Shown: piece by piece, positions 1 through 15,700 of the stretch
How positions within the stretch are numbered: position 1 is the stretch's first letter
How the letters are laid out: every line of letters begins with the position of its first letter
Assembly: GCA_031459535.1 (NCBI GenBank)
Contig: JAVKIJ010000002.1
Coordinates: forward strand, 1 to 61,830
Origin: Candidatus Fervidifonticultor quintus
GTDB taxonomy: Bacteria > Sysuimicrobiota > Sysuimicrobiia > Sysuimicrobiales > Humicultoraceae
Direction of reading: 5' to 3'
Length of the DNA: 61,830 nt
Made by a program: the position numbers and the translations under genes
The notes under the pieces: model-generated
The model's database searches: none
Seen by the model: the letters and a program-made list of their open reading frames with translations, nothing else
Told to the model about the DNA's origin: nothing

Positions 1-276
1 GTGGCCCTGGCCGGGCGGACGCCGTTCATCGGAGACGTGCGGGGGAAGGGGTTGATGATCGGCGTGGAGTTCGTCGACCCCGCTTTGAACGGGGCGCCGA
101 GCGGTGCGATCGTCCGCCGCGTCCTCGAGGAGTGTCTTCGCCGCGGGCTGATCCTCTACCCGGCGGGCTACGCCGGCCACGTGCTCCGGTTCATCCCGCC
201 GCTCACCGTGACCCCCAACCAGCTCGACGAGGGTCTGGCCATCCTCGAGGAGGTCGTCCTGGGACTCTCCCCGTGA
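1..276 (+). CDS. Class III PLP aminotransferase, C-terminal part (runs off the window)
   Basis: IGDVRGKGLMIGVEF ... GLILYPAG..HVLRFIPPL, typical C-terminus of GabT/ArgD-like enzymes. Confidence 0.9.
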   Translation: MALAGRTPFIGDVRGKGLMIGVEFVDPALNGAPSGAIVRRVLEECLRRGLILYPAGYAGHVLRFIPPLTVTPNQLDEGLAILEEVVLGLSP

Positions 277-316: not shown

Positions 317-454
317 GTGAGCGGGTCTGAGCTGTTCTGGAAGTCCGGGACCTGGCTGTTCTTCGTGGGACAGATCCTGGTCCTCGTCATCGTCGCGATC
401 ATCTACGCCTATCAGGCCCGGAAAGAACAGGAAGCGCGGCAAGGTTCCAGATAG
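317..454 (+). CDS. 45-aa single-TM protein, putative small partner of the solute:sodium symporter (absent from ORF track)
   Basis: SD AAGGAGGT at 303-310; GTG 317 to TAG 454; MSGSELFWKSGTWLFFVGQILVLVIVAIIYAYQARKEQEARQGSR (hydrophobic core, charged tail). Confidence 0.8.
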   Translation: MSGSELFWKSGTWLFFVGQILVLVIVAIIYAYQARKEQEARQGSR

Positions 455-529: not shown

Positions 530-2140
530 GTGATTACGGCCTACGTCGTCTTCGTGCTGTACCTCGTGGTGCTGCTGGGCATCGGCTGGTACTACATGAA
601 TCGCGTCAAGACGTATGAGGACTTCATGATCGGGGGCCGTAGGGTCGGCCCGTTTGCGTCGTCCTTCTCACTGGTGGCCTCGTACATGAGCGGGTACACC
701 TACACGGCCGCCCCCGGTCTCAGTTACCGAACCGGCTATTCCACGCTCTGGTGGGCGACCGGCGACGCGCCCGGCAACTCCCTGAGTTTCGGCGTGCTGG
801 GACGCCGGCTGCGACGGTACGCCGAAGCTCTACGGGCGATCACCCTGCCCGAATACTACGAGCACCGCTTCAACAGCCCGCCACTGCGCGTGCTCTCGGG
901 CTTGATCGTGCTCATCACGGTGTCCATGTACCTGGTCGCTCAGTTCGTCGCCTTCGGTAAACTCGTCAGCGTCATGTTCAACACCAGCTACGTGACCGGC
1001 ATGATCATCGGCAGCGTGGTCGTCATCGTCTATACGTTCATGGGCGGCTACCTGGCAGTCGTCTACACCGACGTCATCCAGTTCTCCCTCATGTGGTTGT
1101 TCACCCACGTCCTGTTCTGGACGTCGCTGGCCCTGGCCGGCGGCTTCGCGGCGTTCAACGACAAGCTGGCGGCCATCAGCCCGGCGCTGGTCGTCCCCGC
1201 AGGGCCTGACGCCGCGTACGGCACGTTCATGGCGGCGCTCACGCCCATCGTACTCATCATCATGGGGTCGTTCGGCCTTCCGCACGTGACCATCCGGCAC
1301 CTGTCGCTGAAGGACCCACGCAATGCCCGGCACGCGATGCTCATTACCGCCATCTTCGTGGTGACGTTCTCGTTCATCTACTACATGACGGGTGCCCTGG
1401 CCCGCGTGCTCCTGCTCGAACCGCCCAAGGACGTGGAGGAAGCGGGCATCCGGCTCTGGTTCGCGGTCCTGCACCCGGTGTTCGCCGGGCTCATGAGCTC
1501 GGCCGCGGTGGCCTCCATCATGTCCACCGCCGACTCGTTCCTGATCCTGCTGGTGTCCACGGTGTCTCACGACTTCCTAGACCGGTTCTTCATGCCGAAG
1601 GCGACGGACGAGCAGCGGATCAAGGTGGGGCGCTACCTAGTGGCGGTCCTGGCCTTCCTGGCCTTCCTGGTGGCCATCAGGCCTCCGGCCCTGGTGTTCA
1701 CCATTGTCATCTTCGCATTCGGCGCCATGGCCCTGGCCTTCGGCGTGCCCAACCTGTTCTCGGTGTACTGGAAGCGCACGACCGAGGCCGGCGTGCTGGC
1801 GTGCATGATCCTCTCCCTGATCGTCTACGTGGGCGCCACCGCCTGGAAGTGGAACATTCTGGGCCTGCATCCCTTCATGGTGGGCCTGATCGTGGCCGTG
1901 GTGGCCATCGTGGTGGGATCGCTGCTCTCCAGGCCTCCTGCGGGTGAGCCGAAGGCGGTCTTCGATGCGGTCGGGGGCTACGGCGACCTGCCGGCGGCGG
2001 TCAGGACCCATGCCTCCGCCGCGGTCGGCGAGGAGATCGGCGCGGGGATCGGCTCGCTGAGGCGCCGGGTTCCGCCGGAAGCCATCGGGACCGGGGTCCG
2101 GATCTTGGCGCCGGCCCCGCTGCCCGAGGCATCCGGGTAG
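530..2140 (+). CDS. Sodium:solute symporter (SSS/PutP family)
   Basis: About 13 TM segments; DFMIGGR, ITLPEYYEHRF, GGYLAVVYTD, ASIMSTADS motifs. Confidence 0.93.
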   Translation: MITAYVVFVLYLVVLLGIGWYYMNRVKTYEDFMIGGRRVGPFASSFSLVASYMSGYTYTAAPGLSYRTGYSTLWWATGDAPGNSLSFGVLGRRLRRYAEALRAITLPEYYEHRFNSPPLRVLSGLIVLITVSMYLVAQFVAFGKLVSVMFNTSYVTGMIIGSVVVIVYTFMGGYLAVVYTDVIQFSLMWLFTHVLFWTSLALAGGFAAFNDKLAAISPALVVPAGPDAAYGTFMAALTPIVLIIMGSFGLPHVTIRHLSLKDPRNARHAMLITAIFVVTFSFIYYMTGALARVLLLEPPKDVEEAGIRLWFAVLHPVFAGLMSSAAVASIMSTADSFLILLVSTVSHDFLDRFFMPKATDEQRIKVGRYLVAVLAFLAFLVAIRPPALVFTIVIFAFGAMALAFGVPNLFSVYWKRTTEAGVLACMILSLIVYVGATAWKWNILGLHPFMVGLIVAVVAIVVGSLLSRPPAGEPKAVFDAVGGYGDLPAAVRTHASAAVGEEIGAGIGSLRRRVPPEAIGTGVRILAPAPLPEASG

Positions 2141-2191
2141 TTCGGAGTTCGTGCGGGCGGCAGCCCGCGCTCTCCGGCAGGGAGAGATCAC

Positions 2192-2782
2192 GTGGCGATG
2201 CGACGCTGGGTTGCCCGGGTTACGGAGCTGCCGCCCGCCGTGCAGCAGGAAGCGCGGAAGATCGAGCCCCTGGGGATGATGCTCTATCCCTACTGGGAAG
2301 TGGACGTGCACGTCCATGTCAAGGCACCGTTGCTGCCCCGCGTCAGCCGGCGATGGCGCGCCGCGGTGGACGGCATTACCGGGCAACCGGCCGTGCTCCA
2401 TCCAGACCTCCCGGTTGCGAGCGATGATCGGCAGGACGGGACCCACCAGGGGCAGGGGGCCGGCCCGTCCACTGAAATCCTGGCCGTCACTCCATTCGCC
2501 CTGGCTGCGGAGCAGGTGGATCGCGAGCGCCTGCGGCGGGCGTTGTGGTCGTACGCTTCGCGCCGCCTGCGCTCGTGGGCGAACGTGAGCCTGGACATCG
2601 GAGACGCGCGGCCCGTGTACAAGCAACTCCGGCTGTTCGCCGTTGACTTCCACAACGGGTCGAGAGCCCTGCTGGCCCTCGACACCGTAACTGGCGAGTA
2701 CGGGGTGGCGCCTCCGGACGCGCTGACCGCCCTCCGGGCTCTGCAGACCGCCGGCGCGGAGGAGAGAAAGGAGGAGGCATGA
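2192..2782 (+). CDS. Hypothetical soluble protein
   Basis: SD GGGAGAG upstream; stop overlaps next ATG (ATGA coupling). Confidence 0.7.
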   Translation: MAMRRWVARVTELPPAVQQEARKIEPLGMMLYPYWEVDVHVHVKAPLLPRVSRRWRAAVDGITGQPAVLHPDLPVASDDRQDGTHQGQGAGPSTEILAVTPFALAAEQVDRERLRRALWSYASRRLRSWANVSLDIGDARPVYKQLRLFAVDFHNGSRALLALDTVTGEYGVAPPDALTALRALQTAGAEERKEEA

Positions 2783-3555
2783 ACACCGGGATGGCCCGCT
2801 GGGACCACCTGACCTGGCAGGAGATCGGCGAACGCCGGGCACGCGGCGCCATCGCCGTGCTGCCCGTGGGATCCATTGAACAGCACGGGCCCCATCTGCC
2901 GGTGGCCACCGACGCCCTGATCCCCATCGGGCTGGCCGACCGTCTGGCCGGGGCCCTGGGTGCAGACGACCTGGGCGCCCGGCTGGTGATGCTGCCGCCG
3001 TTCTACTACACGTACGCCAAGCACAGCAACTGGTGGCCGGGCACGCTCAACCTCGATGGTGCCACGTTGGTCACCTACACCCGCGCCGTCCTGGAGGACC
3101 TGTTCCGGCAGGGCATCTCCCGGCTGCTGGTGCTCAACGGCCACATGGAGAGCGTGCAGTTTCTGATGGAAGGTATCGAGTTGGCGCTGGAGCGATATCC
3201 GTCGACGCGCACCGTGCTGGTCAACTGGTGGGAGCTGGTGGCCGACGCGGTCATCCGGGATCTGTTTGCCGAGGCCTGGCCCGGCTGGGAGGCGGAGCAT
3301 GCCGCGCTGACTGAAACGTCGCTGATGCTGGCGTTCTACCCCGAGCTGGTTCGGACCGAGCGGATCACCGACGACCGCGCTCCTCGCACGCTGCCGTACC
3401 GGGTCTTCCCGCAGCCGCCCGAGGTCCGCCCGCCCAGCGGCGTGTATGCCAGCGCCGCGGCGGCTTCAGCGCCCATCGGGGAGCGCCTGGCGCGCCACAT
3501 CGTTGACGGCCTGGTGGCGGTGCTCAGGGAGCGGCTTGCTGAGGTGGCGGCCTAG
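2779..3555 (+). CDS. Creatininase (creatinine amidohydrolase) family protein 1
   Basis: PVGSIEQHGPHLP..TD, LNGH.E, WPGWEAEHA..TETSLM metal-binding motifs. Confidence 0.92.
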   Translation: MNTGMARWDHLTWQEIGERRARGAIAVLPVGSIEQHGPHLPVATDALIPIGLADRLAGALGADDLGARLVMLPPFYYTYAKHSNWWPGTLNLDGATLVTYTRAVLEDLFRQGISRLLVLNGHMESVQFLMEGIELALERYPSTRTVLVNWWELVADAVIRDLFAEAWPGWEAEHAALTETSLMLAFYPELVRTERITDDRAPRTLPYRVFPQPPEVRPPSGVYASAAAASAPIGERLARHIVDGLVAVLRERLAEVAA

Positions 3556-3588
3556 CACTCACGGAGGTGACGAACCGGGCCTGCGGCC

Positions 3589-4932
3589 ATGGCGACGCGC
3601 GTCCTCATCCTCGGCGCTGCGGGGCGTGATTTCCACAACTTCAACGTCTGCTATCGGGATCGCCCCGAGTGGGAGGTCGTGGCGTTCACCGCCACGCAGA
3701 TTCCGAACATCGCCGGCCGACGGTACCCACCAGAGCTGGCAGGGGCGCTCTATCCGGAAGGCATTCCTATCTACCCGGAGGAGCGCCTGGTCGAACTCAT
3801 CAAGACGCTAGGGGTCGACCAGGTCGTCTTCGCCTACAGCGACGTCTCCCACGAACACGTCATGCATCTGGCGTCGGCGGCCCTGGCCGAGGGCACCGAC
3901 TTCGTGCTGCTCGGTCCCCGGCGGACGATGCTGCATTCCGCGAAGCCGGTGGTGTCCGTGGGCGCCGTCCGCACTGGAGCGGGCAAGAGTCCCACCACGC
4001 GCCGCATTGCCGAGATCGTCCGGTCTGCGGGATGGCGCCTGGTGGTCATCCGGCATCCCATGCCCTACGGCGACATCGCTGCGCAGGCGTGTCAGCGTTT
4101 CGCGTCGCTGGACGACCTCGATCGCCACCAGTGCACCCTCGAAGAGCGGGAGGAGTACGAGCCCCACCTGCGACGCGGGACGGTGGTCTACTCCGGCGTG
4201 GACTACGAGCGCATCCTGCGGGCCGCCGAGGCCGAGGCCGACGTCATCCTCTGGGACGGCGGCAACAACGACCTGCCCTTCTTGCGGCCGGACTTCCACA
4301 TCGTTGTCGCCGATCCCCACCGCGCAGGCCACGAGCGGTCGTATCACCCTGGCGAAGCGAACCTCCGGATGGCCGACCTGGTGGTGGTGAGCAAAGTGGA
4401 CACGGCGCCGCCGGAGGCCACCAGGGCTGTGCGCGCCTCGGTCGCAGCGCTCAACCCCCGCGCGGTCATTGTGGAGGCGGCCCTGTACATCGTGGCAGAA
4501 GACGGGCAGCTCGCCGCCGGGCAGCGCGCGCTTGTCATCGAGGACGGCCCCACCCTCACCCACGGAGAGATGCCGTATGGGGCCGGTGTGCTGGCCGCCC
4601 GCAGCGCCGGGGCCGTGCCGGTGGATCCGCGGCCGTGGGCGGCCGAGTCCATCCGGGCAGTCTACCGGCAGTACCCGCACCTGGGGGCGGTCCTGCCGGC
4701 GATGGGGTATGGAGACACGCAGCTCGCGGACCTGGCAGCCACGATTGCGCAGACGCCCTGCGACGTGGTGGTATGCGCCACGCCGGTGGACTTGCGCCGC
4801 CTCATCACCATCCGCCAGCCGGTGGTGCGCGTCGGCTACGAACTCCGCGAGCGCCCGCCCGACGCCTTGATCGGCCCTGTTGTGGATGCCGTCCGGGGCG
4901 CGCTCGAACGCCGGCTGGAGAGGCCCCGATGA
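3589..4932 (+). CDS. P-loop NTPase of the arginine synthetase (ArcE) / cyclic 2,3-diphosphoglycerate synthetase-like family
   Basis: GAAGRDFHNFN N-terminus, AVRTGAGKS P-loop, RHPMPYG, EEREEYEPH, WDGGNND, EDGPTLTHG. Confidence 0.85.
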   Translation: MATRVLILGAAGRDFHNFNVCYRDRPEWEVVAFTATQIPNIAGRRYPPELAGALYPEGIPIYPEERLVELIKTLGVDQVVFAYSDVSHEHVMHLASAALAEGTDFVLLGPRRTMLHSAKPVVSVGAVRTGAGKSPTTRRIAEIVRSAGWRLVVIRHPMPYGDIAAQACQRFASLDDLDRHQCTLEEREEYEPHLRRGTVVYSGVDYERILRAAEAEADVILWDGGNNDLPFLRPDFHIVVADPHRAGHERSYHPGEANLRMADLVVVSKVDTAPPEATRAVRASVAALNPRAVIVEAALYIVAEDGQLAAGQRALVIEDGPTLTHGEMPYGAGVLAARSAGAVPVDPRPWAAESIRAVYRQYPHLGAVLPAMGYGDTQLADLAATIAQTPCDVVVCATPVDLRRLITIRQPVVRVGYELRERPPDALIGPVVDAVRGALERRLERPR

Positions 4933-5744
4933 CAGTTGGTCACATTCAAGCCGTTGACCGGGCACTGCAGATCCTCGAAGCGCTGGCCGAGGCCGGGACA
5001 CCACTGACGCTCTCCGCCATCAGCGCCCGCGCGGGGTTGCACGTGAGCACCGCGTACCGTCTGCTCAGGACGCTCCACCGGCGAGGGTTCGTGGAGCAGG
5101 ATACCGAAACGGGTCAGTACCGGATCGGGGTCAGGGCCTTTCGGGTCGGCAGCAGTTTCCTCGAGGAGATCGGCCTCGGCCGCCGGCTGCGTCCCATGCT
5201 GGCGGATCTGGCGGCGCGCACCGGGGAAACGGCCAACCTCGTGGTCAGGGACTCCCTGGAGGCCGTCTACATCGACCACGTCATCGGGAACAAGGTCAGC
5301 AAGCTGTTCACGGAGATCGGCCAGCGCGTCCCGCTGCACTGCACGGCTGTGGGCAAGGTCCTGCTGGCCTATGCGCCGCCCGCCGAGCGCGACGACCTGT
5401 TGGCGCACCTGGATCTGCGGCGCCTGACGCCCAACACCATTACCTCTCGCAGCGCGCTGCGGCGGGAACTGGTGGCGGTACGGTCTGCTGGGTGTGCCGT
5501 GGACCGCGAAGAGCACGAGCTGGGCGTGGCCTGCGTTGCGGCTCCCGTCTGGGGCGCCTCGGGCCACCTGGTGGCCGCCATGGGCGTCTCGGGCCCCGGC
5601 GGACGGGTGCTGACAGCGGTCGGCGCGCTGAGCGAGCGTGTGCGGGCCGCCGCGGCCGAGGCCTCGCGAGCCCTGGGCGGCGAAGCCTTCCGGGCCAGCG
5701 AGGGTCAACGCCAGCCCGGACGAAAGGGGGTGGTGCAGCGCTGA
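4929..5744 (+). CDS. IclR family transcriptional regulator
   Basis: ATG 4929 overlaps upstream stop; AVDRALQILE HTH, PLHCTAVGKVLL, DREEHELGVACVAAPV. Confidence 0.93.
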   Translation: MTVGHIQAVDRALQILEALAEAGTPLTLSAISARAGLHVSTAYRLLRTLHRRGFVEQDTETGQYRIGVRAFRVGSSFLEEIGLGRRLRPMLADLAARTGETANLVVRDSLEAVYIDHVIGNKVSKLFTEIGQRVPLHCTAVGKVLLAYAPPAERDDLLAHLDLRRLTPNTITSRSALRRELVAVRSAGCAVDREEHELGVACVAAPVWGASGHLVAAMGVSGPGGRVLTAVGALSERVRAAAAEASRALGGEAFRASEGQRQPGRKGVVQR

Positions 5745-5842
5745 GCGCGAGTCGGCTTTCAGAAGCCCTGGAGGCGTCCGCCGCGCACAGACCACAGGAT
5801 GCCATGGCTGCCGACACCTGAGACAAGGAGGATAGCAGGATC

Positions 5843-6943
5843 ATGCGAGGTACAGTCTGGACGTCTCGTCTGCTGGCCGTATTGGTTGTCTGGGCCCTCA
5901 TCGTGCTCGCCGCGGGGGTGCCTCCGGCCCCGGCGCAACAGAAGATCGGGGGCACCCTCAACATCCTGGTCATGCCGGGGTACGAAGAGGACCAGATCAT
6001 CAAGCCCTTCGAGCAGCGCTACGGCGTCAAGGTCAACGCCAAGATCTATCCGAGCTCCGACCAGATGTTTGCGATCCTCAGCGCAGCCAAGCCGGGCGAG
6101 TGGGACGTGACCACCCCCGATACGCCGTGGATCGCCAAGCTCGTCAAGGCCAATCTGCTCATGCCGCTCAATGCGGCTGACTACCCGGATGTCAAGAACT
6201 TCTTCTCCCGCTGGCAGAAGTTCGACCAGACCTACGTGAACGGGACACTGTACGGGCTCGTGAGCCGGTTCGGGTTCTACGGCATCGTCTGGAACTCCAA
6301 GCACGTCAAGGCCGAAGAGACCCGGTCCATCAAGATCATGTGGAACGAGAAGTACAAGAAGAAGATCGTGCTCTTCGACTGGTATCTCCCCAACATGGGG
6401 ATGCTGGGCCGCTACCTGGGGTTCAAGCAGCCGTACCGTATCACGGGCGCCGACTACAAGAAGCTGGAGGAGACCCTGTTCTCGCTGCGGCCGCAGGTGG
6501 GCATCATCGCGGCCACCAACTCCGACACCATTCAGGCCCTGGCCAACGAGAGCGCCTGGCTCAGCTTTGGTGGCGAGTGGCTGCAGGTACTGCTCAAGGA
6601 GCAGGGCCGGCCGCTAGAGCTGACCATCCCCGACGAGGGCGGCGTGAGCTGGACCGAGGCGCTGGTCATCATGAAGAACAGCCAGAACCTCCCGGCGGCC
6701 AAGGCGTACGTTCAGTACGTCCTGAGCCCCGAAGTGCAGGCGAAGCTGGCCTGGGCCAACGCGTTCCATGCCATGGTACCCAACAAGCTGGCGGCGCGGT
6801 ATCTCAAGCCCGAGCACGCCAGGATGGTCTTCATGGACGACGCGGCCCGCCTGGAAAAGATCCTCAGCCGCATCGCGACCCGCGAGATCCCGGCGAACGA
6901 GGATCAGTGGAAGCTGAGTTGGGAGCGGTTCAAGAGCCGGTAG
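5843..6943 (+). CDS. ABC substrate-binding protein, PotD/PotF (polyamine-type) family
   Basis: Signal peptide; FEQRYGVKVN, TIPDEGGVSWTE; heads a PotABC-like operon. Confidence 0.85.
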   Translation: MRGTVWTSRLLAVLVVWALIVLAAGVPPAPAQQKIGGTLNILVMPGYEEDQIIKPFEQRYGVKVNAKIYPSSDQMFAILSAAKPGEWDVTTPDTPWIAKLVKANLLMPLNAADYPDVKNFFSRWQKFDQTYVNGTLYGLVSRFGFYGIVWNSKHVKAEETRSIKIMWNEKYKKKIVLFDWYLPNMGMLGRYLGFKQPYRITGADYKKLEETLFSLRPQVGIIAATNSDTIQALANESAWLSFGGEWLQVLLKEQGRPLELTIPDEGGVSWTEALVIMKNSQNLPAAKAYVQYVLSPEVQAKLAWANAFHAMVPNKLAARYLKPEHARMVFMDDAARLEKILSRIATREIPANEDQWKLSWERFKSR

Positions 6944-6959
6944 GCTAACCTCTTGTCCT

Positions 6960-8081
6960 GTGGCCACTGCGTTTGACGTCGAACTCATTGGCGTGACCAA
7001 GCGCTACGGCGACGTCGTGGCGGTCCGCGACGTCTCCCTACAGGTCCGCCCGGGCGAGTTCCTCACCCTGCTCGGGCCCAGCGGATCGGGGAAGACCACC
7101 ATCCTCCGGATGGTGGGCGGGTTCGAGACGGTCACCAGCGGCACCGTCATCATCAAGGGTCGCGTGATGACCGACGACCCGCCGCACCGCCGGGACACCA
7201 GCATGGTGTTCCAGGACTACGCCCTGTTCCCGCACAAGACCGTGGGTGAGAACATCGCCTTCGGCCTGAAGATGCGTGGGATACCCCCAGAGGTCCGGCG
7301 CCGCCGTGTGCAGGAAGCCCTGGAACTGGTCAACCTGCCGGGCGTGGCCGACCGGATGCCCAGCCAGTTGAGCGGAGGCCAGCGCCAGCGCGTGGCGCTG
7401 GCCCGCTCCCTGGTCATCCAGCCGTCAGTCCTCCTGCTGGACGAGCCGCTGGGCGCCCTCGACGCGCAGATCCGCAAGTACATGCAGATCGAGCTCAAGG
7501 CGCTGCAGCAGCGTCTGGGGCTCACGTTCCTCTATGTCACCCACGACCAGGAAGAAGCCATGGTCATCAGCGATCGCATCGCCATCCTGCGGGACGGCGT
7601 CCTGGAGCAGACCGGTCCCCCCGAAGAAGTCTACGAGCGCCCGGCCACGCGGTTCGTGGCCAGTTTCCTCGGGGAGTGCAACCTGCTCGACGGCACCGTG
7701 GCCGAGGTCCGAGGCGCCGATCTGGCCATCAGGTGCCCGGACCTGGGCACACTGTGGGCCTCGGCCCCGCATCTGGCCTCTGCGGTGAAGCCCGGCCAGC
7801 AGGTCTCGGTCGGGGTGCGCCCCGAGCGCATGCACCTGGGTGACCCGCCCGCGGGCCGGGCGAATGCCCTCGCGGGGCGCGTGCGCCAGGCGGTCTACGC
7901 GGGCACCGTCACGCGCTACACAGTGGCGGCGGGAGAGGCCGACATCCTCGTCACCGCCCTGGGCCCCAGAGCGCACGCGGTCGGCGATGCGATCCGTGTG
8001 TGGTGGGACATCGCGGAAACCATGGTCATCCCCCAGGAGCCCCTGACCGGCCCGCGGCGCACTGAAGCCGTGCGGCCATGA
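6960..8081 (+). CDS. ABC ATP-binding protein (PotA-like)
   Basis: GPSGSGKT, LSGGQRQR, LLLDEPLGALD, TOBE tail. Confidence 0.93.
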   Translation: MATAFDVELIGVTKRYGDVVAVRDVSLQVRPGEFLTLLGPSGSGKTTILRMVGGFETVTSGTVIIKGRVMTDDPPHRRDTSMVFQDYALFPHKTVGENIAFGLKMRGIPPEVRRRRVQEALELVNLPGVADRMPSQLSGGQRQRVALARSLVIQPSVLLLDEPLGALDAQIRKYMQIELKALQQRLGLTFLYVTHDQEEAMVISDRIAILRDGVLEQTGPPEEVYERPATRFVASFLGECNLLDGTVAEVRGADLAIRCPDLGTLWASAPHLASAVKPGQQVSVGVRPERMHLGDPPAGRANALAGRVRQAVYAGTVTRYTVAAGEADILVTALGPRAHAVGDAIRVWWDIAETMVIPQEPLTGPRRTEAVRP

Positions 8082-8968
8082 GGCGTCCCGCCCGGCTTCC
8101 CGACCGGCGACGGCAGGAGCCGTGGGCCTGGTGGTTCCTGCTGCCGATCAGCCTGTGGCAACTGGTGTTCTACTTTGCCTCGGCGGCGTTCCTGGTGGTG
8201 GTCAGTTTCTGGACCATGAAAGAATACCGCCTGACGCCCACCTGGACCCTGCAGAACTACAAGATCTTCTTTACCGAGTTCATCTACCTCAAGGCGTACC
8301 TCACCTCGCTGGTCTTCGCCACCACCACGGTCCTGGTGACGATCCTCGTGGCCTATCCGTTCGCCTATGCGCTGGTCTTCGTGGTGCCCAGGCGTCTGCT
8401 GGCTGTCGCCCTCGTGGCCGTTATCGCGCCGTTCTGGACCAACTACCTGGTCCGCGCCTATGCCTGGCAGGTCATCCTGGCGGGCAACGGCATCCTGAAC
8501 TACGTGCTCCTGCAGCTACGGATCATCACCCAGCCCTTCGACATCCTCTATACGTTGGTGGCGGCGCGGATCGGGCTGGTGCACTTCCTGCTGGCCATCA
8601 TGACCCTGATCCTGTACACGACGCTGGACGGCATCGACAAGAACCTCCTGGAGGCCGCCGACGACCTGGGCGCGGGCCGGCTGCGCACCTTCACCGAGGT
8701 GATCCTGCCGCTCAGCTCCGGAGGCCTGGTCGCCGGCAGCATGTTCATCTTCGTGCTGGCGTTCGCCGACTTCGTCTCGCCGGCCGTACTGGGCGGTCAG
8801 GCCCAGCGCGTGTTCCCGCAACTGGTGGTGGACGCGGTCCAGTGGACCGTCAACTGGCCGCAGGCGTCGGCGTTCGCGGTAATCATGGTCGCGACCATCC
8901 TCACCATCGTGGGGATCTTCGCCCGGTGGATGCGCTTCGCCGGGTTCGGCAGGGCGGTGGACCGGTGA
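8078..8968 (+). CDS. ABC permease (PotB-like)
   Basis: APFWTNYLVRAYAW; EAA loop LLEAADDLGA. Confidence 0.92.
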   Translation: MRRPARLPDRRRQEPWAWWFLLPISLWQLVFYFASAAFLVVVSFWTMKEYRLTPTWTLQNYKIFFTEFIYLKAYLTSLVFATTTVLVTILVAYPFAYALVFVVPRRLLAVALVAVIAPFWTNYLVRAYAWQVILAGNGILNYVLLQLRIITQPFDILYTLVAARIGLVHFLLAIMTLILYTTLDGIDKNLLEAADDLGAGRLRTFTEVILPLSSGGLVAGSMFIFVLAFADFVSPAVLGGQAQRVFPQLVVDAVQWTVNWPQASAFAVIMVATILTIVGIFARWMRFAGFGRAVDR

Positions 8969-9789
8969 GCGCGCGCGCCATCCCGTCCCCCTCCCGCGGC
9001 ATCCCCTGGGACCGGCTGGGCACGACGCTGCTCCGCGCATACCTAATGCTGGCGTACGCCTTCCTGTTCGCCCCCATCGCGGTCACCATCATCACGTCAT
9101 TCAACGCCGACCGGTTCGTGACGTTGCCCTGGCGCGGCTTCACCTGGCACTGGTACGAGCTGGTGGTCGGCAATCCGGATCTGCTGGTGCCGCTGCGCAA
9201 CAGCGTCCTGGTGGCCACAGCCGTGGGGCTGACCTCGGTCGTGCTGGGGTTCCTGGGCGCGTACGGTCTGACCCGGACGCAGGGGCGGTGGCAGGACCTC
9301 TACATGCTGGCCCTGATCTCGCCGCTGGCCGTGCCGTGGATCCTGCTAGGCCTGGGGCTGCTGGTCTTCTTCACCCGGATCGGGCTCCCTAAGTCGCTGC
9401 TGACCGTCTGGATCACCCACACCATCTTCGCCGCGCCCCTGGCCATGTTGATCATCCGCGGTCGCCTGCTGACCATGCGGCGCAGCTACGAGGAGGCCGC
9501 CTGGGACCTGGGGGCCAGCCGCCTGCGGACCATCTGGGAGGTCGTGCTTCCGCTGACCACGCCGGGCCTGGTGGGGGCGTTCTTGCTCACCTTCACCCTG
9601 TCGTTCGACGAGTTCATCCTGGCCTGGTTCGTTTGCGGATTCGATGTGACGCTCCCGGTCAAGATCTGGGGGCTGATGCGGTCCGGCATCAACCCCACCA
9701 TCAGCGCCATCGGTACCATCGTGTTTGGCCTGTCCATCTCGCTCAGCGTGCTGGGGCAGGCCCTGCAGCGGCGGGGGACGGCCTCGTAG
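8965..9789 (+). CDS. ABC permease (PotC-like)
   Basis: GTG overlaps upstream TGA; EEAAWDLGA, FTLSFDEF. Confidence 0.92.
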   Translation: MSARAIPSPSRGIPWDRLGTTLLRAYLMLAYAFLFAPIAVTIITSFNADRFVTLPWRGFTWHWYELVVGNPDLLVPLRNSVLVATAVGLTSVVLGFLGAYGLTRTQGRWQDLYMLALISPLAVPWILLGLGLLVFFTRIGLPKSLLTVWITHTIFAAPLAMLIIRGRLLTMRRSYEEAAWDLGASRLRTIWEVVLPLTTPGLVGAFLLTFTLSFDEFILAWFVCGFDVTLPVKIWGLMRSGINPTISAIGTIVFGLSISLSVLGQALQRRGTAS

Positions 9790-9806
9790 CCCGGAGGAGC
9801 AACACC

Positions 9807-10604
9807 ATGACGGCACAGGACGCGTTCGTGGCCCACCTGACTTGGCCCGAGTTCGCCGAGCGCATCGCCCGCGAGCCTGTCGTCATCCCGGTGGGGTCCG
9901 TCGAGCAGCACGGGCCGCATCTGCCGCTAGGAGTGGACACGTTCATCCCGTTCCACCTGGCCATCCGGCTCGCACAGCGGCTACCCCTCCTCGTGGCGCC
10001 GCCGCTGTGGTACGCCGGACCCTCGGATCCCGCAAGCGGCGGCGGCCAGCGGTTTCCCGGCACGCTGGCGATACGCGGGACGACGTTGATCGACCTGACC
10101 ACCGACGTGATCACCGAGTTCTTCCGGCAGGGAGCCCGTCACATTGTGTTGTTGAATGGCCACTTCGAGAACGCGGCCTTTCTGGCCGAGGCCGCCCGGC
10201 GCGTGTTGCCCCCGGAGGACGCCTCGGGCAGGAGGATCGTCCTCGTCAACTGGTGGGAGCACGTGCCCGACGACGTCCTGCAGCGCCTGTTCCCGGAGGG
10301 CTTCCCGGGATGGGAAGCCGAACACGCCAGCCTCACGGAGACGTCGCTGATGCAGGCCCTGGTGCCCGAGCTCGTCCACGCCGAGCGCCTGCCCCCGGAG
10401 ATGGGCCCGCGACGCCAGGCGCCCCGGCACAAGGTGTTTCCGGAGCCGTCGGGGCTGGTGCCCGCAAGTGGGATCCTGTATTCAGCGGCCGGGGCCTCGG
10501 CGGAACGGGGACAGGCACTGGTGGAGGTGCTACTCCAGGCACTCGAGGACATCTTGAGGGCGGAGTGCTCCGTCCCACCGCACGAGACCGTGGACCTCTC
10601 CTGA
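9807..10604 (+). CDS. Creatininase family protein 2 (closer to bona fide creatininase)
   Basis: SD GGAGGAG; EQHGPHLPLGVD, SGGGQRFPGT, NGHFEN, FPGWEAEH. Confidence 0.92.
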   Translation: MTAQDAFVAHLTWPEFAERIAREPVVIPVGSVEQHGPHLPLGVDTFIPFHLAIRLAQRLPLLVAPPLWYAGPSDPASGGGQRFPGTLAIRGTTLIDLTTDVITEFFRQGARHIVLLNGHFENAAFLAEAARRVLPPEDASGRRIVLVNWWEHVPDDVLQRLFPEGFPGWEAEHASLTETSLMQALVPELVHAERLPPEMGPRRQAPRHKVFPEPSGLVPASGILYSAAGASAERGQALVEVLLQALEDILRAECSVPPHETVDLS

Positions 10605-10703
10605 GGTGTGAGCCCACACGGTAGGCCACCCTTCGCCGGGCGTCACAGTCCCGGAGGACGGTCTTTCCGTGCCGGAGAAATGGCACATTGGGAGGGATGC
10701 AGA

Positions 10704-11894
10704 ATGCGAAACCTCCGTGGCAGATTTTGGTTGGTCGTTGCGGCGCTGACGACGGTGATTGTAGCCGTATCGAGCGCAGCAGTGGCCCAGCCAGCACCAC
10801 CTCCAGCCACTCAAGAATGGTTGAAGGCGGCCAGGCTGGGGCCGTACGTCGAACCCCGGTTCGATGCCGCGGCCCTGCACGAGCAGGCCCGGCGGGAAGG
10901 CGCAGTCACTGTCTACTCGTACTCATCACGGATCCACGCCATTGCCAGCACATTCGAGAAGCAGTACCCGGGGATCAAGGTCAACGCCTTCGACCTGGAC
11001 GGCGCCGAGATCATCACCAAGGTGTTGGCTGAGCAGCGGGCTCGCAATTACCAGGCCGACCTGATCTTCCTCCCCGAGGTAGCCACCGTGAAGCACCAGT
11101 TGATGCCCCGGTGGATGGTCTTCAACTACGTGCCCCCGGACCTGATCACCAAGATCCCGCGGCAGTACCGGGAGCCCCTCTTGGCGCGCCACTTCAGCTT
11201 CCGAGTCGTCTTCTACAACAGTGAACGTTACGCGAGTTCGCCGGTCAACAACCTCTGGGATCTGACCCGGCCCGAATGGAAGGGCAAGGTGATGCTCCCG
11301 GATCCGCTCAAGATTCCCGAGTATCTCTCCCTCCTGGTCACGGTCGTGCAGCGGGCCGATGAGATGGCCTCGGCGCACCAGCGGAAGTACGGTGAGCTAC
11401 GGCTCAGCCCCGGGGTCGAGAATGCCGGCTACGAGTGGATCCGGCGCCTGCTGGCCAACGACCTGATCATCGCTCCGTCCACGGACGAGGTAACCAACTC
11501 CATCGGCCGGCCCGGCCAGACCGCGCCGCCCATCGGGATCTCCGCCTGGTCGCGCATGCGCGACAAGGTCCGGCGGCCGACCCTGCGGTTCGAGCCGGCG
11601 CTGGCAATGGAACCCGTGGCGGCCGTCAGCGACCTCACGATCCTGGCCATTCCCGCCCATGCCCCGCATCCGGCCGCGGCGAAGCTGCTCATTCGCTGGA
11701 TGATGGGCGACGAGAAGGGCGGCTTGGGGTTCGAGCCATTCTACATCGAAGGACACCTGCCCACGAGGACCGATGTCCCGCCACCTCCGGGCATGCCGCT
11801 CTTGCACCACCTGAAGGTCTGGCACCAGGACTACGACGTGATCTGGAAGCAGTCCACCAGGGTGAGGGACTTCTGGTTGCGGTACCTCCGGTAG
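10704..11894 (+). CDS. ABC substrate-binding protein, AfuA/FbpA-type
   Basis: Signal peptide; FEKQYPGIKV, WDLTRPEWKGKV, APHPAAAKL. Confidence 0.85.
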   Translation: MRNLRGRFWLVVAALTTVIVAVSSAAVAQPAPPPATQEWLKAARLGPYVEPRFDAAALHEQARREGAVTVYSYSSRIHAIASTFEKQYPGIKVNAFDLDGAEIITKVLAEQRARNYQADLIFLPEVATVKHQLMPRWMVFNYVPPDLITKIPRQYREPLLARHFSFRVVFYNSERYASSPVNNLWDLTRPEWKGKVMLPDPLKIPEYLSLLVTVVQRADEMASAHQRKYGELRLSPGVENAGYEWIRRLLANDLIIAPSTDEVTNSIGRPGQTAPPIGISAWSRMRDKVRRPTLRFEPALAMEPVAAVSDLTILAIPAHAPHPAAAKLLIRWMMGDEKGGLGFEPFYIEGHLPTRTDVPPPPGMPLLHHLKVWHQDYDVIWKQSTRVRDFWLRYLR

Positions 11895-11931
11895 CCTCTG
11901 GCCCTGCGCCCGGCATCCAACTGGCGGCGGG

Positions 11932-13761
11932 ATGATGGCAACTCTCAGCCCTGCGGTCATGGTGCGCCTGCACCGCTTGCGGTTCTCGCTCGAGCGCCCC
12001 CACGTTTTCATCGGTCTGGCCCTGGGCGTGGTGCTGGCTCTGCTTGTCGTGGCGCCCATGCTTCAGCTCGTCCACACGACCCTAACCTGGAGCGACGAGG
12101 ACCTGCGGGCGCACCCGGAGGCAGAACCGGGCGCTCTGACCGCCTTCCACTGGCTGCGGACACTTGGCAGCGAGATCAGCTGGAATGTCTTCTACGTCCC
12201 GCTGGTGAACTCGCTGGTAACCGCTATTGGCGCCTCGGCCATCGCCCTGGTCGTTGGGGGTCTGCTGGCCTGGCTCGTGGCGCGGACCGATGTGTCGGGG
12301 CGCATCTGGCTGCAGACACTGGGAGTTGTGCCGTACGTCCTGCCGTCGTGGACGATTGCGCTAGTATGGCTCATCCTTTTCCGTAGCGCCCGGGCCGGGG
12401 CCGGGGTCGGGCTGTTCGAGTACGCAACTGGTGCGCCGCCGCCGGACTGGCTCGCGTACGGTCCACTGCCGATCGTGGTCGTTCTGGGACTGCACTACTT
12501 CCCTTTCACGTTCCTGGTGCTGGCGGCGGCAATGCGCGCGCAGGACGCCAGCCTCGAGGAGAGCGGTGAGGTCCTGGGTGCCCGTAGCGCGACCATCTTG
12601 CGGCGGATCACCTTTCCGTTGATGTTGCCGGCGCTGCTGTCGGCGTTCGTGCTGACCTTCTCGAAAGCGCTGGGGACTTTTGGGACGCCCTACCTGCTTG
12701 GACTGCCGGTACGCTACTTCACCCTGTCCACAATGATCTACTCCCACATCGTCAGCCGTGCGACCGCAGTGGGCTACATTCTGGCCCTGGTACTCATCGT
12801 CATCTCGGCACTGACCGTCTACGCCAACCAGCGTGCCATCGGCATCCGGCGTAGCTTCGTCACCATCACCGGTCGAGGGATGCGTACGCGGATCCAACCG
12901 CTGGGCCGCTGGCGGACCCCGGCGGCGATCTTCGCCTGGTGCGTGATCCTGGTCGCGGTCGTGGTGCCGCTAGTGCTGCTGATCTGGAACAGCCTGATGC
13001 GCTACCCTGATGATTACTCCGTGCGCAACCTGACCGGCCACTTCTGGATTGGCGGCTCCGACCTGACCATCGCAGACGGCGAAGCCGGGATCCTGCGCAA
13101 CCGGTCGATCCTCGGCGCCGCATTCAACAGCCTACGCCTGAGCCTGGCCACGGCGGTCCTCACCGGAGCCGCGGGGCTGGCGGTGGGGCTCACGGTAGTT
13201 CGTGGCCGCGGTACGCTGCTCGCCAAGATCGTCGAACAGGTATCGTTCCTCCCCTACCTGGTGCCGAGCATCGCGTTTGGGGCCATCTACCTGGCGGTGT
13301 TCCTGCGGCCCTGGGGTCCCTTGCCCGCGTTGTACGGCACCTTCACGCTGCTGGTCCTGACCTGCACCGCGAAGAACCTGCCGTTCGCTTCGCGAACCGG
13401 CATCGCAGCGCTGATGCAGGTTAGCGGGGAACTGGAGGAGGCCTCGGTGGTGTTGGGCGCGGGCCTGTGGCTGCGACTGCGCCGGATCGTGGTTCCGCTG
13501 GTGGCCAGCGGGCTGCTGTCCGGAATCCTGCTGGCGTTCATCTCGACGATGCGGGAGCTGTCGCTCATCATCCTGCTGATCACGCCAGCCACCCGTACGC
13601 TCACCACCATGACCTTCCGCTATACCGAGCAGGGTCTCCCGCAGTTCGCCAACGCGATCATCGTCCTGTTGATCGCCCTCATCTTGCTGGGCGAGATGCT
13701 GGAGCGTCGTCTGGAAGCGCGAGCGATGATGGAGCCACGGGAACGCGGGGTCCGGCTGTGA
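11932..13761 (+). CDS. ABC permease, fused two-domain FbpB/AfuB type
   Basis: Two EAA loops (LEESGEVLGA, LEEASVVLGA); about 12 TM. Confidence 0.9.
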   Translation: MMATLSPAVMVRLHRLRFSLERPHVFIGLALGVVLALLVVAPMLQLVHTTLTWSDEDLRAHPEAEPGALTAFHWLRTLGSEISWNVFYVPLVNSLVTAIGASAIALVVGGLLAWLVARTDVSGRIWLQTLGVVPYVLPSWTIALVWLILFRSARAGAGVGLFEYATGAPPPDWLAYGPLPIVVVLGLHYFPFTFLVLAAAMRAQDASLEESGEVLGARSATILRRITFPLMLPALLSAFVLTFSKALGTFGTPYLLGLPVRYFTLSTMIYSHIVSRATAVGYILALVLIVISALTVYANQRAIGIRRSFVTITGRGMRTRIQPLGRWRTPAAIFAWCVILVAVVVPLVLLIWNSLMRYPDDYSVRNLTGHFWIGGSDLTIADGEAGILRNRSILGAAFNSLRLSLATAVLTGAAGLAVGLTVVRGRGTLLAKIVEQVSFLPYLVPSIAFGAIYLAVFLRPWGPLPALYGTFTLLVLTCTAKNLPFASRTGIAALMQVSGELEEASVVLGAGLWLRLRRIVVPLVASGLLSGILLAFISTMRELSLIILLITPATRTLTTMTFRYTEQGLPQFANAIIVLLIALILLGEMLERRLEARAMMEPRERGVRL

Positions 13762-14921: not shown

Positions 14922-15700
14922 CGGTCTTCCCGGACGCAGTTCCACTTCCGGTGGCGGCGGATCGCCCGGACGCCATCTTCTTCGACATGGTGGGCTGCCT
15001 CGAGGACGTGCGGTCGACGCCCGAGGACCGCGCGCGGGCACGGCGGCGGCTTCACCGCCTCCTGACCCAGATCGGGGTGCGGCTACCCCGCCGCGTCTTC
15101 GAGGCCGCGTTCATCGCCGGTCGTGAGGCGTACTACCGATGGCGCGACGAGTCGCTGCGGGAGTTGCCGCCGGAGCGGATCTGGCTGGAGTACTTCCTCC
15201 GCGATCTGCTGGACGACCAGAGCCGGCAGACAGTCGCCGCAGCGGCCGAGACCCTCATGGTAGCCTACGACGAGTCCTATTACCGACGGCGGTTACGACC
15301 CGGAGTGCGCAGGGTGCTCCAGGCCCTTCAGCGGCGCGATTACCGGCTGGGCATTATCAGCAACGTCTGCAGCCGCACGATCGTTCCCCGCAACCTCGCG
15401 AGGTACGGTATCGCAGACCGGTTCGAAGCCGTGATCCTTTCGTCGGTCTCAACGCACCGCAAGCCGGGCCCACAGATCTTCCACATTGCCGCCCAGATGC
15501 TGGGGATACCTCCACACCGATGTGCCTACGTTGGCGATACCGTCAACCGCGACATTAATGGCGCGGTGGCCGCCGGGTTTGGGATTACGGTGCTAATCCC
15601 ATCGGCGCTCACCGTAGAAAAGGACAGCGAGCTGACGTACCAGGCCGCCCCAACCCACGTGATCGGTGAGTTCCGTGAGTTGCTGGCAATCTTCCCCTGA
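14918..15700 (+). CDS. HAD-superfamily hydrolase
   Basis: IFFDMVGCL, ISN, RKPGPQIF, YVGDTVNRD motifs I-IV. Confidence 0.9.
   Translation: MTVFPDAVPLPVAADRPDAIFFDMVGCLEDVRSTPEDRARARRRLHRLLTQIGVRLPRRVFEAAFIAGREAYYRWRDESLRELPPERIWLEYFLRDLLDDQSRQTVAAAAETLMVAYDESYYRRRLRPGVRRVLQALQRRDYRLGIISNVCSRTIVPRNLARYGIADRFEAVILSSVSTHRKPGPQIFHIAAQMLGIPPHRCAYVGDTVNRDINGAVAAGFGITVLIPSALTVEKDSELTYQAAPTHVIGEFRELLAIFP

Follow-up and report, generated by a model that had tools for sequence, protein, structure and literature searches.

The locus described here raises the question of which reaction is catalysed by a second member of the arginine synthetase (ArcE) family that is encoded between two genes for creatininase-family hydrolases. 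The description of arginine synthetase dates from as recently as 2024, and in the accessible part of that report the Thermococcus enzyme alone is characterised (PMC11032458). Bacterial ArcE paralogues were not found in the accessible parts of the arginine synthetase literature since 2024, including two ArcE papers (PMC11032458, PMC13260591). The hot-spring-type bacterial lineage of the present study keeps two ArcE copies in different settings: one is associated with ornithine carbamoyltransferase (OTC), and the other, ArcE2, is surrounded by genes for importers, creatininase-like hydrolases, a regulator and a class III aminotransferase (AT). If ArcE2 is an ordinary arginine enzyme, the two copies lend themselves to the study of how one pathway is divided among isozymes under different regulation; otherwise ArcE2 would be the first member of the family with another substrate. 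If a creatinine route, as proposed in the first-pass annotation, were true, the operon would conserve energy in the breakdown of creatinine-like cyclic guanidines and do so without a creatinase.

Organisation of the ArcE2 gene cluster

All cluster genes of the window, i.e. of the whole analysed stretch of 61,830 nucleotides, are located on the plus strand at intergenic distances of -4 to 98 bp, as determined from Pfam and NCBIfam matches, start codons and gaps (Table 1). The contig starts within the aminotransferase gene, so that there is no DNA upstream of the window. The gene order of the first-pass annotation (creatininase 1, P-loop enzyme, IclR, transporters, creatininase 2) was confirmed by the same data. 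Its count of two uptake systems holds for the sodium:solute symporter (SSS) and the PotDABC-like importer but has to be corrected for a second ABC system that follows crn2 together with a HAD hydrolase; these genes are not kept after crn2 in L134, L223 or L224, and it is uncertain whether they are part of the operon unit. Profile searches of the entire contig gave no Creatinase_N, arginase-family or arginine deiminase (ADI)-family match, which agrees with the earlier observation that creatinase, arginase and deiminase are missing from the window.

Table 1 Features of the ArcE2 gene cluster in the window
Feature	Position	Strand	Evidence and remarks
Class III aminotransferase (AT), C-terminal 91 aa only	1..276	+	Pfam PF00202, E 3.5e-13; truncated by contig start
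45-aa hydrophobic membrane ORF, before symporter	317..454	+	Direct sequence reading
Sodium:solute symporter SSS (PutP/PanF-like)	530..2140	+	PF00474, E 2.3e-66; TIGR00813 at its cut-off
196-aa conserved hypothetical protein	2192..2782	+	3' end overlaps crn1 start by 4 bp
Creatininase-family amidohydrolase 1 (crn1)	2779..3555	+	PF02633, E 6e-58; TIGR04448 222.6
ArcE2, 447-aa P-loop protein, ArcE-family paralogue	3589..4932	+	Starts 33 bp after crn1
IclR-family regulator	4929..5744	+	PF09339 and PF01614; ATG overlaps ArcE2 stop codon
PotD/PotA/PotB/PotC-like ABC importer	5843-6943, 6960-8081, 8078-8968, 8965-9789	+	Pfam/NCBIfam matches, all below equivalog cut-offs
Creatininase-family amidohydrolase 2 (crn2)	9807..10604	+	TIGR04448 267.2; GGAGGAG precedes start 9807
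Second ABC system (binding protein, fused permease, ATPase) and HAD hydrolase	10608..15700	+	Pfam, NCBIfam

Some of the smaller assignments deserve a comment. The 45-aa ORF is conserved in position in L083 and L211 and is possibly a small transporter subunit. The 196-aa protein belongs to no family in Pfam or NCBIfam; its ORF has a gene-like codon-position GC, an orthologue of 55% identity is present at the equivalent position in L036, and in the protein atlas it falls into unnamed clusters of ~180 aa only. Position 4929 is the sole in-frame start of the IclR gene. The arrangement as a whole exceeds chance since crn1 and crn2 stand out genome-wide and parts of the cluster recur in other genomes.

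ArcE2 is a paralogue within the arginine synthetase family

ArcE2 carries the motif GAAGRDFHNFN at residues 9-19 and a Walker A motif (GAGKS) at residues 130-134, of which R13, F15, H16, F18, N19, G130, G132, K133 and S134 do not vary among 57 aligned homologues. The use of the first motif as family-defining is based on this alignment and on the first-pass annotation, as there is no curated ArcE model: Pfam yields weak LpxK and cobW matches, and NCBIfam has no model. Where the 8000 scored homologues are named, they are 'predicted GTPase' or 'cyclic 2,3-diphosphoglycerate synthase', and the family annotated in this way was identified as arginine synthetase ArcE by Michimori et al. 2024 in the accessible text of PMC11032458, so that the family assignment of the first-pass annotation was correct. 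The AF2 model of ArcE2 (pLDDT 93.1) has cyclic 2,3-diphosphoglycerate (cDPG) synthetase (8oru, E 2.7e-17; 8ork) and then LpxK (4ehy, E 6e-8) as nearest folds in Foldseek. Correspondingly, the model of the Thermococcus kodakarensis enzyme (TK2200p) was superimposed on LpxK 4EHY and a distant cDPG synthase similarity was noted, as far as the accessible text goes (PMC11032458). ArcE2 thus resembles T. kodakarensis ArcE (TK2200; Michimori, Yokooji & Atomi, PNAS 2024, PMC11032458; Front Microbiol 2026, PMC13260591; both in their accessible parts) in annotation names, predicted fold neighbours and the OTC/carbamate kinase (CK) neighbourhoods of the family, and by these links the 447-aa protein is a member of the ArcE family. 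The Methanothermus fervidus cDPG synthetase (8oru, 8ork, 9sxb) is the nearest solved fold and the origin of the database name of the homologues. ArcE2 is only 13-14% identical to it in the fold alignment, and the sequence match covers 87 residues with an E value of 0.0038; an assignment as cDPG synthetase was therefore rejected.

The genome contains a further family copy on contig C58, 66% identical to ArcE2 and located directly upstream of OTC. ArcE2 is hence a true paralogue in a non-canonical neighbourhood, as had been recognised in the first-pass annotation. We compared the ArcE2 clade with 268 other ArcE homologues at those positions with a conservation of 97% or more in the latter. It keeps 113 of 115 such positions, the two exceptions being L to I/V and D to E replacements, and lies within the range of 49 control clades (0-4 deviating positions); this argument is indirect, as there is no ArcE structure with substrate. 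S299L, the only change in a family-conserved motif with strong specificity for the clade, is also present in OTC-linked copies. In the phylogenetic tree a 30-row clade (SH-aLRT 98, stem branch 0.13) comprises the aminotransferase-linked copies and 10 rows of a sub-clade, of which the two members with known context both adjoin carbamate kinase. The phylogeny by neighbourhood suggested in the first-pass annotation, in which grouping with ordinary ArcE would speak against a new function, therefore gave such a grouping in part, with CK-linked copies nested inside the ArcE2 clade. Judged by its sequence, ArcE2 shows no sign of a remodelled enzyme and looks like an ordinary arginine enzyme.

Conserved partners, importers and creatininases

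We defined loci with a gene product at least 73% identical to ArcE2 as ArcE2-type, which gave 7 distinct loci for comparison with 175 other ArcE loci. OTC and/or CK is present within 6 kb at 88 of the 175 other loci and at none of the seven ArcE2-type loci; the canonical partners of ArcE2 must consequently act in trans. The same class III aminotransferase is located upstream at all seven loci, and IclR orthologues follow at six. The full-length AT orthologues are 71-78% identical, pass the NF005993 subfamily cut-off (603-626 vs 574) and have GABA transaminases as nearest solved structures. Among the 175 other ArcE loci, 15 also have a class III aminotransferase at a distance of up to 6 kb, one of these enzymes being from the same NF005993 subfamily. 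The 15 loci include operons of the type CK-OTC-ArcE-AT (L155, L158, L159, L161), whose aminotransferase is of the ornithine type; they share ArcE plus a class III aminotransferase with the ArcE2 loci but carry OTC and CK and lack creatininase, IclR and the PotD-like importer.

Of the four ArcE2 loci that have sufficient sequence, three contain creatininase genes, and a further ArcE2 locus does so if contigs C49 and C37 of G007 abut; beside the window such genes recur in the clusters of G002, L134 and probably G007, and the full gene set is found in the window and L134. The creatininase linkage claimed in the first-pass annotation is thus real but partial. G003 has AT-ArcE2 with no creatininase within 10 kb, and its syntenic rplM-rpsI-OTC-CdaA locus is devoid of ArcE1, so that ArcE2 is the sole family member found there. 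Conversely, G001 has AT-IclR-PotDABC-crn2 without ArcE2 and a separate OTC-CK-ArcE operon, and G029 likewise has PotDABC-crn2 without ArcE2. In L134, L223, L224 and L225 the gene immediately after PotC is a crn2 orthologue (72-77% identity), and PotDABC and crn2 are conserved together there; this PotDABC-creatininase unit, conserved in five genomes or contigs, is an unexplained uptake-plus-hydrolase module. The nearest solved structures of its PotD-like binding protein are spermidine/putrescine binders (E 3e-19).

The genome has 12 creatininase-family matches. On the TIGR04448 creatininase model (cut-off 235) crn2 scores above and crn1 below the threshold, in line with L134 crn2 (268.3) and the L083 crn1 orthologue (210.3); in a scan of eight other family copies, with one copy left out, seven reached 89-133, and there are one further IolN-type copy and one near-copy of crn1. 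Both proteins align over the full length with Pseudomonas putida creatininase (1j2t, 1v7z, 1q3k; for 1j2t E 9.7e-56 for crn2 and 1.8e-47 for crn1). They are identical to 1j2t in the columns of E34, H36, D45, H120, E183 and H178, which we take to be the binuclear-metal ligands and the catalytic histidine. In the columns of S78, Y121, E122, W154, D155 and W174, presumably the substrate-contact residues, crn2 has S, F, E, W, E and W, and crn1 has a loop around S78 shortened by five residues and then M, E, W, E and W. The proteins thus deviate from the P. putida enzyme at Y121 and D155, and each of them is coupled to an importer, with no creatinase or sarcosine oxidase nearby. Probably, crn1 and crn2 open an imported creatinine-like cyclic amide.

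OTC and CK are encoded in G000, G002, G003 and G007, the carbamate kinase on contig C117 of G000 scoring 358.3 bits at a cut-off of 358.25, and in the genome two carbamoyltransferase paralogues are clustered with carbamate kinase, an arrangement that is conserved. Argininosuccinate synthase and carbamoyl-phosphate synthetase are also encoded. No ADI-family match (PF02274) was detected in G000, a genome of 89% completeness. The combination of carbamate kinase with a missing ADI fits an ArcE that complements it, and in the same way ADI is absent from the T. kodakarensis ArcE pathway in the accessible descriptions.

Candidate roles of ArcE2

We favour, with moderate confidence, that ArcE2 is a second, inducible and separately regulated L-arginine synthetase isozyme that feeds an ornithine-type aminotransferase. 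By analogy to T. kodakarensis ArcE, for which it was shown, the most probable reaction is L-arginine + ADP + Pi <-> L-citrulline + NH3 + ATP. The operon would be controlled by IclR and have the class III aminotransferase followed by ArcE2 as its fixed core. ArcE2 would convert arginine to citrulline with formation of ATP, OTC and carbamate kinase encoded elsewhere would convert citrulline to ornithine and yield a second ATP, and the aminotransferase would take the delta-amino group off ornithine. Two uptake-plus-creatininase units, small ORF-SSS-unknown protein-crn1 and PotDABC-crn2, would have been recruited to this operon; the creatininase product either enters the ArcE2/aminotransferase route or is linked to it by co-regulation only.

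In the arginine deiminase (arcABC) and agmatine deiminase pathways a guanidino group is converted to a ureido group, phosphorolysis of which gives carbamoyl phosphate and, via carbamate kinase, ATP. The ArcE2 route would follow the same logic in a genome without an ADI-family gene, except that the first step would itself form ATP. Compared with T. kodakarensis ArcE, as far as this is described in the accessible text, ArcE2 is a second genome copy with a predicted activity, set apart from OTC/CK (adjacency 0/7) and placed among AT, IclR, importers and creatininase-family genes; ArcE genes are located near arcB/arcC only 'in some genomes', according to the accessible text of PMC11032458. Several points speak against the arginine reading: OTC and CK are distant from ArcE2 at all seven loci; a reason is needed for keeping two copies that share one substrate in a genome with an OTC-linked ArcE, and differential regulation is assumed as this reason; the ArcE2 operon holds the two genes that come closest to true creatininase, an association that arginine does not explain; the binding protein resembles polyamine rather than amino-acid binders; and ornithine is only a presumed AT substrate, the nearest solved structures being GABA transaminases.

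The creatininase association and the type of binding protein would be accounted for by a special case of the arginine reading, which we propose ourselves and to which we give a low probability. Here the creatininase paralogues would act upstream of ArcE2 on a cyclic amide that is cationic and imported, for example an arginine- or ornithine-derived lactam or cyclic acyl-guanidine; its hydrolysis would release arginine or ornithine for ArcE2, OTC/CK and AT. Every observed combination would be covered, from AT-ArcE2 alone (G003) and AT-IclR-PotDABC-crn2 with separate OTC-CK-ArcE (G001) to the full set, a carboxylate-free cation suits a polyamine-type binding protein, and the ArcE2 pocket is left unchanged. 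However, natural occurrence of such a substrate is not documented in the accessible literature, and crn2 keeps most of the presumed creatinine-contact residues, which favours creatinine itself.

According to the central proposal of the first-pass annotation, the creatininases would open the ring of creatinine, glycocyamidine or a similar compound. The resulting N-amidino acid, creatine or guanidinoacetate, would be deiminated by ArcE2 with formation of ATP and of the N-carbamoyl acid, a step that replaces creatinase. The TIGR04448 scores, in which crn2 passes and crn1 nearly reaches the cut-off and the other scanned copies stay far below, the retained columns of the presumed metal ligands and catalytic histidine, the position of both genes inside the operon at no more than 33 bp from the adjacent genes, their recurrence in other ArcE2 clusters, the missing adjacency of ArcE2 to OTC or CK and the absence of Creatinase_N from the contig all point in this direction. 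We nevertheless regard this new pathway as unlikely. The alpha-amino-acid end of arginine is missing from creatine, yet the family-conserved positions of ArcE2 are kept within the deviation of the control clades, S299L is shared with OTC-linked copies and CK-linked copies nest in the clade. The constant partner, the class III aminotransferase, has no substrate in a creatine pathway and also occurs beside ordinary ArcE. Moreover, the crn2 unit exists without ArcE2 in two genomes, and in G003 ArcE2 is the only ArcE and has no creatininase nearby. N-carbamoylsarcosine amidase, sarcosine oxidase and carbamoyltransferase, which the first-pass annotation had suggested to look for upstream, are absent from the cluster and from the upstream region on the near-copy contig C138.

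It appears quite improbable that the substrate is agmatine or another omega-guanidino-amine, taken up by the PotD-like importer and converted by ArcE2 with formation of N-carbamoylputrescine and ATP. Putrescine would then be freed from N-carbamoylputrescine by a carbamoyltransferase or by an amidase, for which a creatininase paralogue is a possible candidate, and be transaminated towards GABA. The relation of the binding protein to spermidine/putrescine binders and of AT to GABA and putrescine-type transaminases would fit, as would the cluster of two carbamoyltransferase paralogues with carbamate kinase. An aldehyde dehydrogenase is encoded two genes upstream in L134 and L035, but it types weakly (best match GucD, 548 vs a cut-off of 770) and not as aminobutyraldehyde dehydrogenase. 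Furthermore, crn2 resembles creatininase and not a carbamoyl amidase, and a loss of family-conserved positions, expected if no carboxylate is bound, is not seen in ArcE2. In the accessible text of Michimori et al., L-arginine was the sole substrate accepted by TK2200p among six guanidino compounds tested, and agmatine was not used.

Finally, a function of ArcE2 in salvage or biosynthesis, with the reaction running in the synthetic direction (citrulline + NH3 + ATP to arginine), is very unlikely. Reversibility of the reaction and the growth on citrulline that TK2200p supports (PMC11032458, accessible text) would fit, but the genome already has argininosuccinate synthase and carbamoyl-phosphate synthetase, and importers, IclR and aminotransferase are the make-up of a catabolic unit.

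Family assignment and sequence conservation of ArcE2

In Pfam the 447-aa P-loop protein (ArcE2) gave weak LpxK and cobW matches, and no NCBIfam family matched it. A search of 5.8 billion proteins yielded 8000 scored homologues, all with E ≤ 0.001; the best 120 of these share 62-91% identity with it, and those that bear a name are annotated as 'predicted GTPase' or 'cyclic 2,3-diphosphoglycerate synthase'. Homologues of TK2200 of Thermococcus bear the same annotation names (Michimori et al. 2024, PMC11032458). TK2200 is described there as the arginine synthetase ArcE (Arg + ADP + Pi <-> Cit + NH3 + ATP), distantly similar to cDPG synthase and with a model structurally like LpxK 4EHY (PMC11032458). 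Among solved structures, an AlphaFold2 model of ArcE2 (pLDDT 93.1, alignment of 57 homologues) comes closest to cDPG synthetase (8oru, E 2.7e-17, 14% identity), followed by LpxK structures, 4ehy among them. A PDB sequence search returned a weak cDPGS match and nothing else, and neither sequence nor fold searches found an ArcE structure in the PDB. Several lines thus agree, if indirectly, in placing the protein in the ArcE family, the likeness to TK2200 being drawn from homologue names and predicted fold. The same genome (G000) encodes a second ArcE copy on contig C58, 66% identical to ArcE2, located between rpsI and the gene of an ornithine carbamoyltransferase (OTC) that passes TIGR00658. ArcE2 is a paralogue with a neighbourhood of its own.

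We aligned 298 family members and took as reference the 268 that belong neither to the ArcE2 clade nor to its nested relatives. In this set 115 positions reach at least 97% conservation; the 20 ArcE2-clade sequences keep 113 of them, the other two being changed from L to I/V and from D to E. As a control, 49 other clades of 10-40 tips each deviate at 0-4 positions (median 0), those rich in members linked to OTC or carbamate kinase (CK) at 1-4. Once the nested relatives join the reference set, the ArcE2 clade deviates at one of 112 positions. Three positions are clade-specific, one within a conserved motif (S299L); a role of S299L as specificity switch is unlikely, L or M standing at 299 in six OTC-linked rows as well.

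The first-pass annotation had called for a phylogeny marked by neighbourhood, creatininase-linked against carbamoyltransferase- or CK-linked copies. In the trees (FastTree of 298 rows; IQ-TREE of 78 rows, LG+G4, short search), ArcE2 falls in a 30-row clade (support 98) with an unremarkable stem branch of 0.13, sister to OTC-linked copies of the same order. Nested within it is a sub-clade of ten rows, and CK adjoins both of its members of known context (2/2). As the support for this nesting is 87, the AT-linked copies may still be monophyletic. The syntenic rplM-rpsI-OTC-CdaA locus of G003, a 98% complete genome of the same genus, lacks ArcE, so that ArcE2 is the sole family member found there.

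The gene cluster and its creatininases

The window comprises bases 1-61,830 of a 73,759-base contig in an assembly of 3.1 Mb (69% GC, 138 contigs, 89% complete, 5% contamination). A single co-directional cluster on the + strand spans window 1 to 15,700, with intergenic gaps of -4 to 98 bp. Its gene order is as initially described, except that the class III aminotransferase (AT) is merely a contig-edge fragment; upstream, where further pathway genes were to be sought, there is no sequence, the contig starting at the window start inside AT.

Features of the window, by position and strand
Feature	Position	Strand	Remark
Class III aminotransferase, C-terminal 91 aa	1-276	+	Gene cut by contig start
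45-aa hydrophobic ORF between AT and SSS	317-454	+	Kept in L083 and L211
SSS symporter	530-2140	+	
196-aa protein without family	2192-2782	+	
crn1, creatininase family	2779-3555	+	
ArcE2, 447-aa P-loop protein	3589-4932	+	
IclR	4929-5744	+	ATG overlaps ArcE2 stop codon
PotD, PotA, PotB, PotC-like genes	5843-9789	+	
crn2, creatininase family	9807-10604	+	
Second ABC system and HAD hydrolase	after crn2, within cluster ending 15,700	+	
DnaB helicase, 945 aa	41636-44473	-	Intein inside (Pfam Intein_splicing, two stretches)

The 45-aa ORF may encode a small symporter subunit. The 196-aa protein matched no Pfam or NCBIfam family, and its atlas matches are unnamed clusters alone. A scan of window 1-16500 found no promoter-like site and two terminator-like sites, against 6.8 expected. 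Upstream of AT, an A+T-rich stretch that contains hexamers like TTGACA...CATAAT and recurring TGCA(A/T) words is conserved amid ~70% GC DNA in L134 (8570-8690), L035 and L083, and is by its sequence a candidate promoter and IclR operator.

The creatininase family is expanded in G000, with 12 matches, and generally tied to importers: six of nine other distinct copies (loci L214-L222) have ABC-transporter genes no further than ~3 kb away, and GntR regulators or amidohydrolases are frequent neighbours too. Against TIGR04448, the NCBI creatininase equivalog (cut-off 235), crn1 scores 222.6 and crn2 267.2, compared with 89-133 for seven other copies (eight of the nine others were scanned); the copy on contig C12 is a 3-dehydro-scyllo-inosose hydrolase of the IolN type. 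Apart from a near-copy of crn1 on contig C138, crn1 and crn2 thus differ by score from the family copies scanned in G000. Each aligns along its whole length with the creatininase of Pseudomonas putida (crn1 E 2e-47, crn2 E 1e-55), crn1 being five residues short in one loop, and neither shows a change in the columns that we take to hold the metal ligands and the catalytic histidine of that enzyme. The absence of a creatinase from the window, noted at first pass, is confirmed by the lack of any Creatinase_N match on the contig; the whole genome has 13 such matches, which may be creatinases or peptidases.

A near-copy of window 1-3555 is found on contig C138 (L211, 5464-9506), where it stops at the contig end. 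Besides AT and the small ORF it comprises SSS (97% identical in aa sequence), crn1 (92%) and the gene of the 196-aa protein (93-96%), which seems to be frameshifted. It reflects either another strain binned with this one (contamination 5%) or a true duplication. Genes for a Dpp-type binding protein and permease and for a ROK regulator lie upstream of it in the reverse orientation; OTC, CK and carbamoyl amidase genes are absent from this neighbourhood.

Neighbourhoods of ArcE2-type genes

ArcE homologues and their flanks were collected from 61 related genomes, a species-representative genome collection and metagenome contigs, the latter two scans comprising the best 80 of at least 599 and at least 596 stretches; ArcE2-type loci among the matches listed there number three and one. 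Neighbours were scored by tblastn in 182 locus rows after merging of identical sequences (L070, L078 and L083 duplicate L033, L034 and L036, each pair entering the counts a single time). One OTC-linked row comes from the unpublished genome G013, and the conclusions are independent of it. Seven rows are of the ArcE2 type (73-100% identity to ArcE2): the window, L036, L033, L034, L035, L006 and the metagenome locus L134; 15 further such proteins (P0002-P0016) stand outside the counts.

Genes within 6 kb of ArcE genes, among the matches listed
Neighbour	ArcE2-type	Other ArcE
OTC and/or CK	0/7	88/175 (58 OTC, 60 CK, 30 both)
Class III aminotransferase	7/7	15/175
IclR	6/7, downstream of ArcE2	0/175
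Creatininase at least 40% identical to crn1 or crn2	3/7	0/175

The seven aminotransferases are 71-78% identical to one another and lie upstream of ArcE2 on the same strand, at 22-39 bp in five loci; in the window and L036 a unit of SSS, the 196-aa protein gene and crn1 is inserted between the two. At one of the 175 other ArcE loci, a remote member of the creatininase family is encoded on the opposite strand. ArcE2-type genes are present in five of 94 genomes, in two genera of a whole-phylum sample, all of one order, and the nearest named records among the matches listed belong to Candidatus Fervidifonticultor and to MAGs of the CSP1-3/Sysuimicrobiota lineage entered as 'Armatimonadota bacterium'. 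The OTC-CK-ArcE operons at L227 (G001 contig C60) and L228 (G029 contig C40) carry a third ArcE type that is more distant (55-58% identical); this type is the sole ArcE in the same-genus genome G001 (55% identical) and in the genomes of genus g4.

The creatininase linkage noted at first pass holds elsewhere in part. The order AT-SSS-unknown-crn1-ArcE2-IclR is repeated in L036 (same genus) and AT-ArcE2-IclR-PotDABC-crn2 in L134. The latter order is likely shared by G007, as judged across a contig break: contig C49 ends within PotD, and contig C37 (L225) opens with PotA-PotB-PotC-crn2. At L033 of G003, on the other hand, AT-ArcE2 has no creatininase within 10 kb, and the other two ArcE2 contigs do not reach far enough to show or exclude one. 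Conversely, G001 carries AT-IclR-PotDABC-crn2 without ArcE2 (L224, contig C95; AT-IclR gap ~120 bp), and G029 carries PotDABC-crn2 with none of the window's other cluster genes upstream (L223, contig C1). PotDABC-crn2 is a conserved five-gene unit whose proteins in L223, L224 and L225 are 66-86% identical to those of the window. From these joined and separate occurrences, AT-ArcE2(-IclR) and PotDABC-crn2 are fixed units, often but not always joined, and creatininase-plus-importer units have repeatedly been recruited to the ArcE2 operon.

Possible role of ArcE2

Genes for OTC and CK are both present in G000, G002, G003 and G007, and no ADI-family match was found in the 89% complete G000 assembly. 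G000 also encodes argininosuccinate synthase and carbamoyl-phosphate synthetase and hence a conventional arginine biosynthesis, so that both its ArcE copies are probably catabolic. The aminotransferases of the ArcE2 loci pass the cut-off of subfamily NF005993, and their closest solved structures are GABA transaminases. Several class III subfamilies adjoin ordinary ArcE genes: a RocD type in L108 and L140, a GABA-AT type in the CK-OTC-ArcE-AT operons of L155, L159 and L161, and an NF005993 type in L105. Ornithine would fit as their common substrate. The upstream aldehyde dehydrogenase, tried as a discriminator between ornithine and putrescine routes, was non-discriminating (best GucD, 548 bits vs cut-off 770).

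We consider it somewhat probable that ArcE2 acts as an IclR-controlled isozyme of L-arginine synthetase, coupled to the ornithine-type aminotransferase of its operon, for which OTC and CK would be supplied in trans. The first-pass annotation had instead proposed that ArcE2 deiminates creatine, or another ring-opened guanidine, with ATP yield after creatininase. We regard this route as very unlikely, since no conserved positions are released in the ArcE2 clade and the AT-ArcE2 and PotDABC-crn2 modules occur independently. The same two observations make a route through agmatine about as unlikely. TK2200p used L-arginine; D-arginine, agmatine, guanidine and two Arg dipeptides were not used in the assays described (PMC11032458), which indicates that the enzyme recognises the alpha-amino-acid end of its substrate. 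The unchanged conserved positions speak indirectly against a shift to creatine or agmatine. To unite the L-arginine isozyme with its creatininase neighbours, we suggest that creatininase-type hydrolases might act on an imported cationic cyclic amide and so free arginine or ornithine. The literature searched yielded no description of an ArcE paralogue that uses another substrate, nor of a cluster joining ArcE and creatininase, although the published ArcE distribution and tree (PMC11032458 Figs S10-S11) may already show this clade; 'creatin' and 'arginine' do not occur in the main text of the Sysuimicrobiota paper PMC11604079.

Two further G000 loci carry carbamoyltransferase genes. Contig C117 (L212, 7582-13370, - strand) encodes two PLP (PALP) enzymes, two carbamoyltransferase-type proteins and CK; the aspartate-carbamoyltransferase-type protein scores 248.6 on TIGR00670 (cut-off 237), and the OTC-like one stays below its cut-off (234 vs 281). 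The carbamoyltransferase pair is also found together in G002, G003 and G007, with CK adjacent in G002 and G003. A second OTC-CdaA pair on contig C115 (L213, 5534-7270) has no ArcE upstream; its OTC is 70% identical to the C58 OTC, and the pair possibly stems from a second population in the bin.
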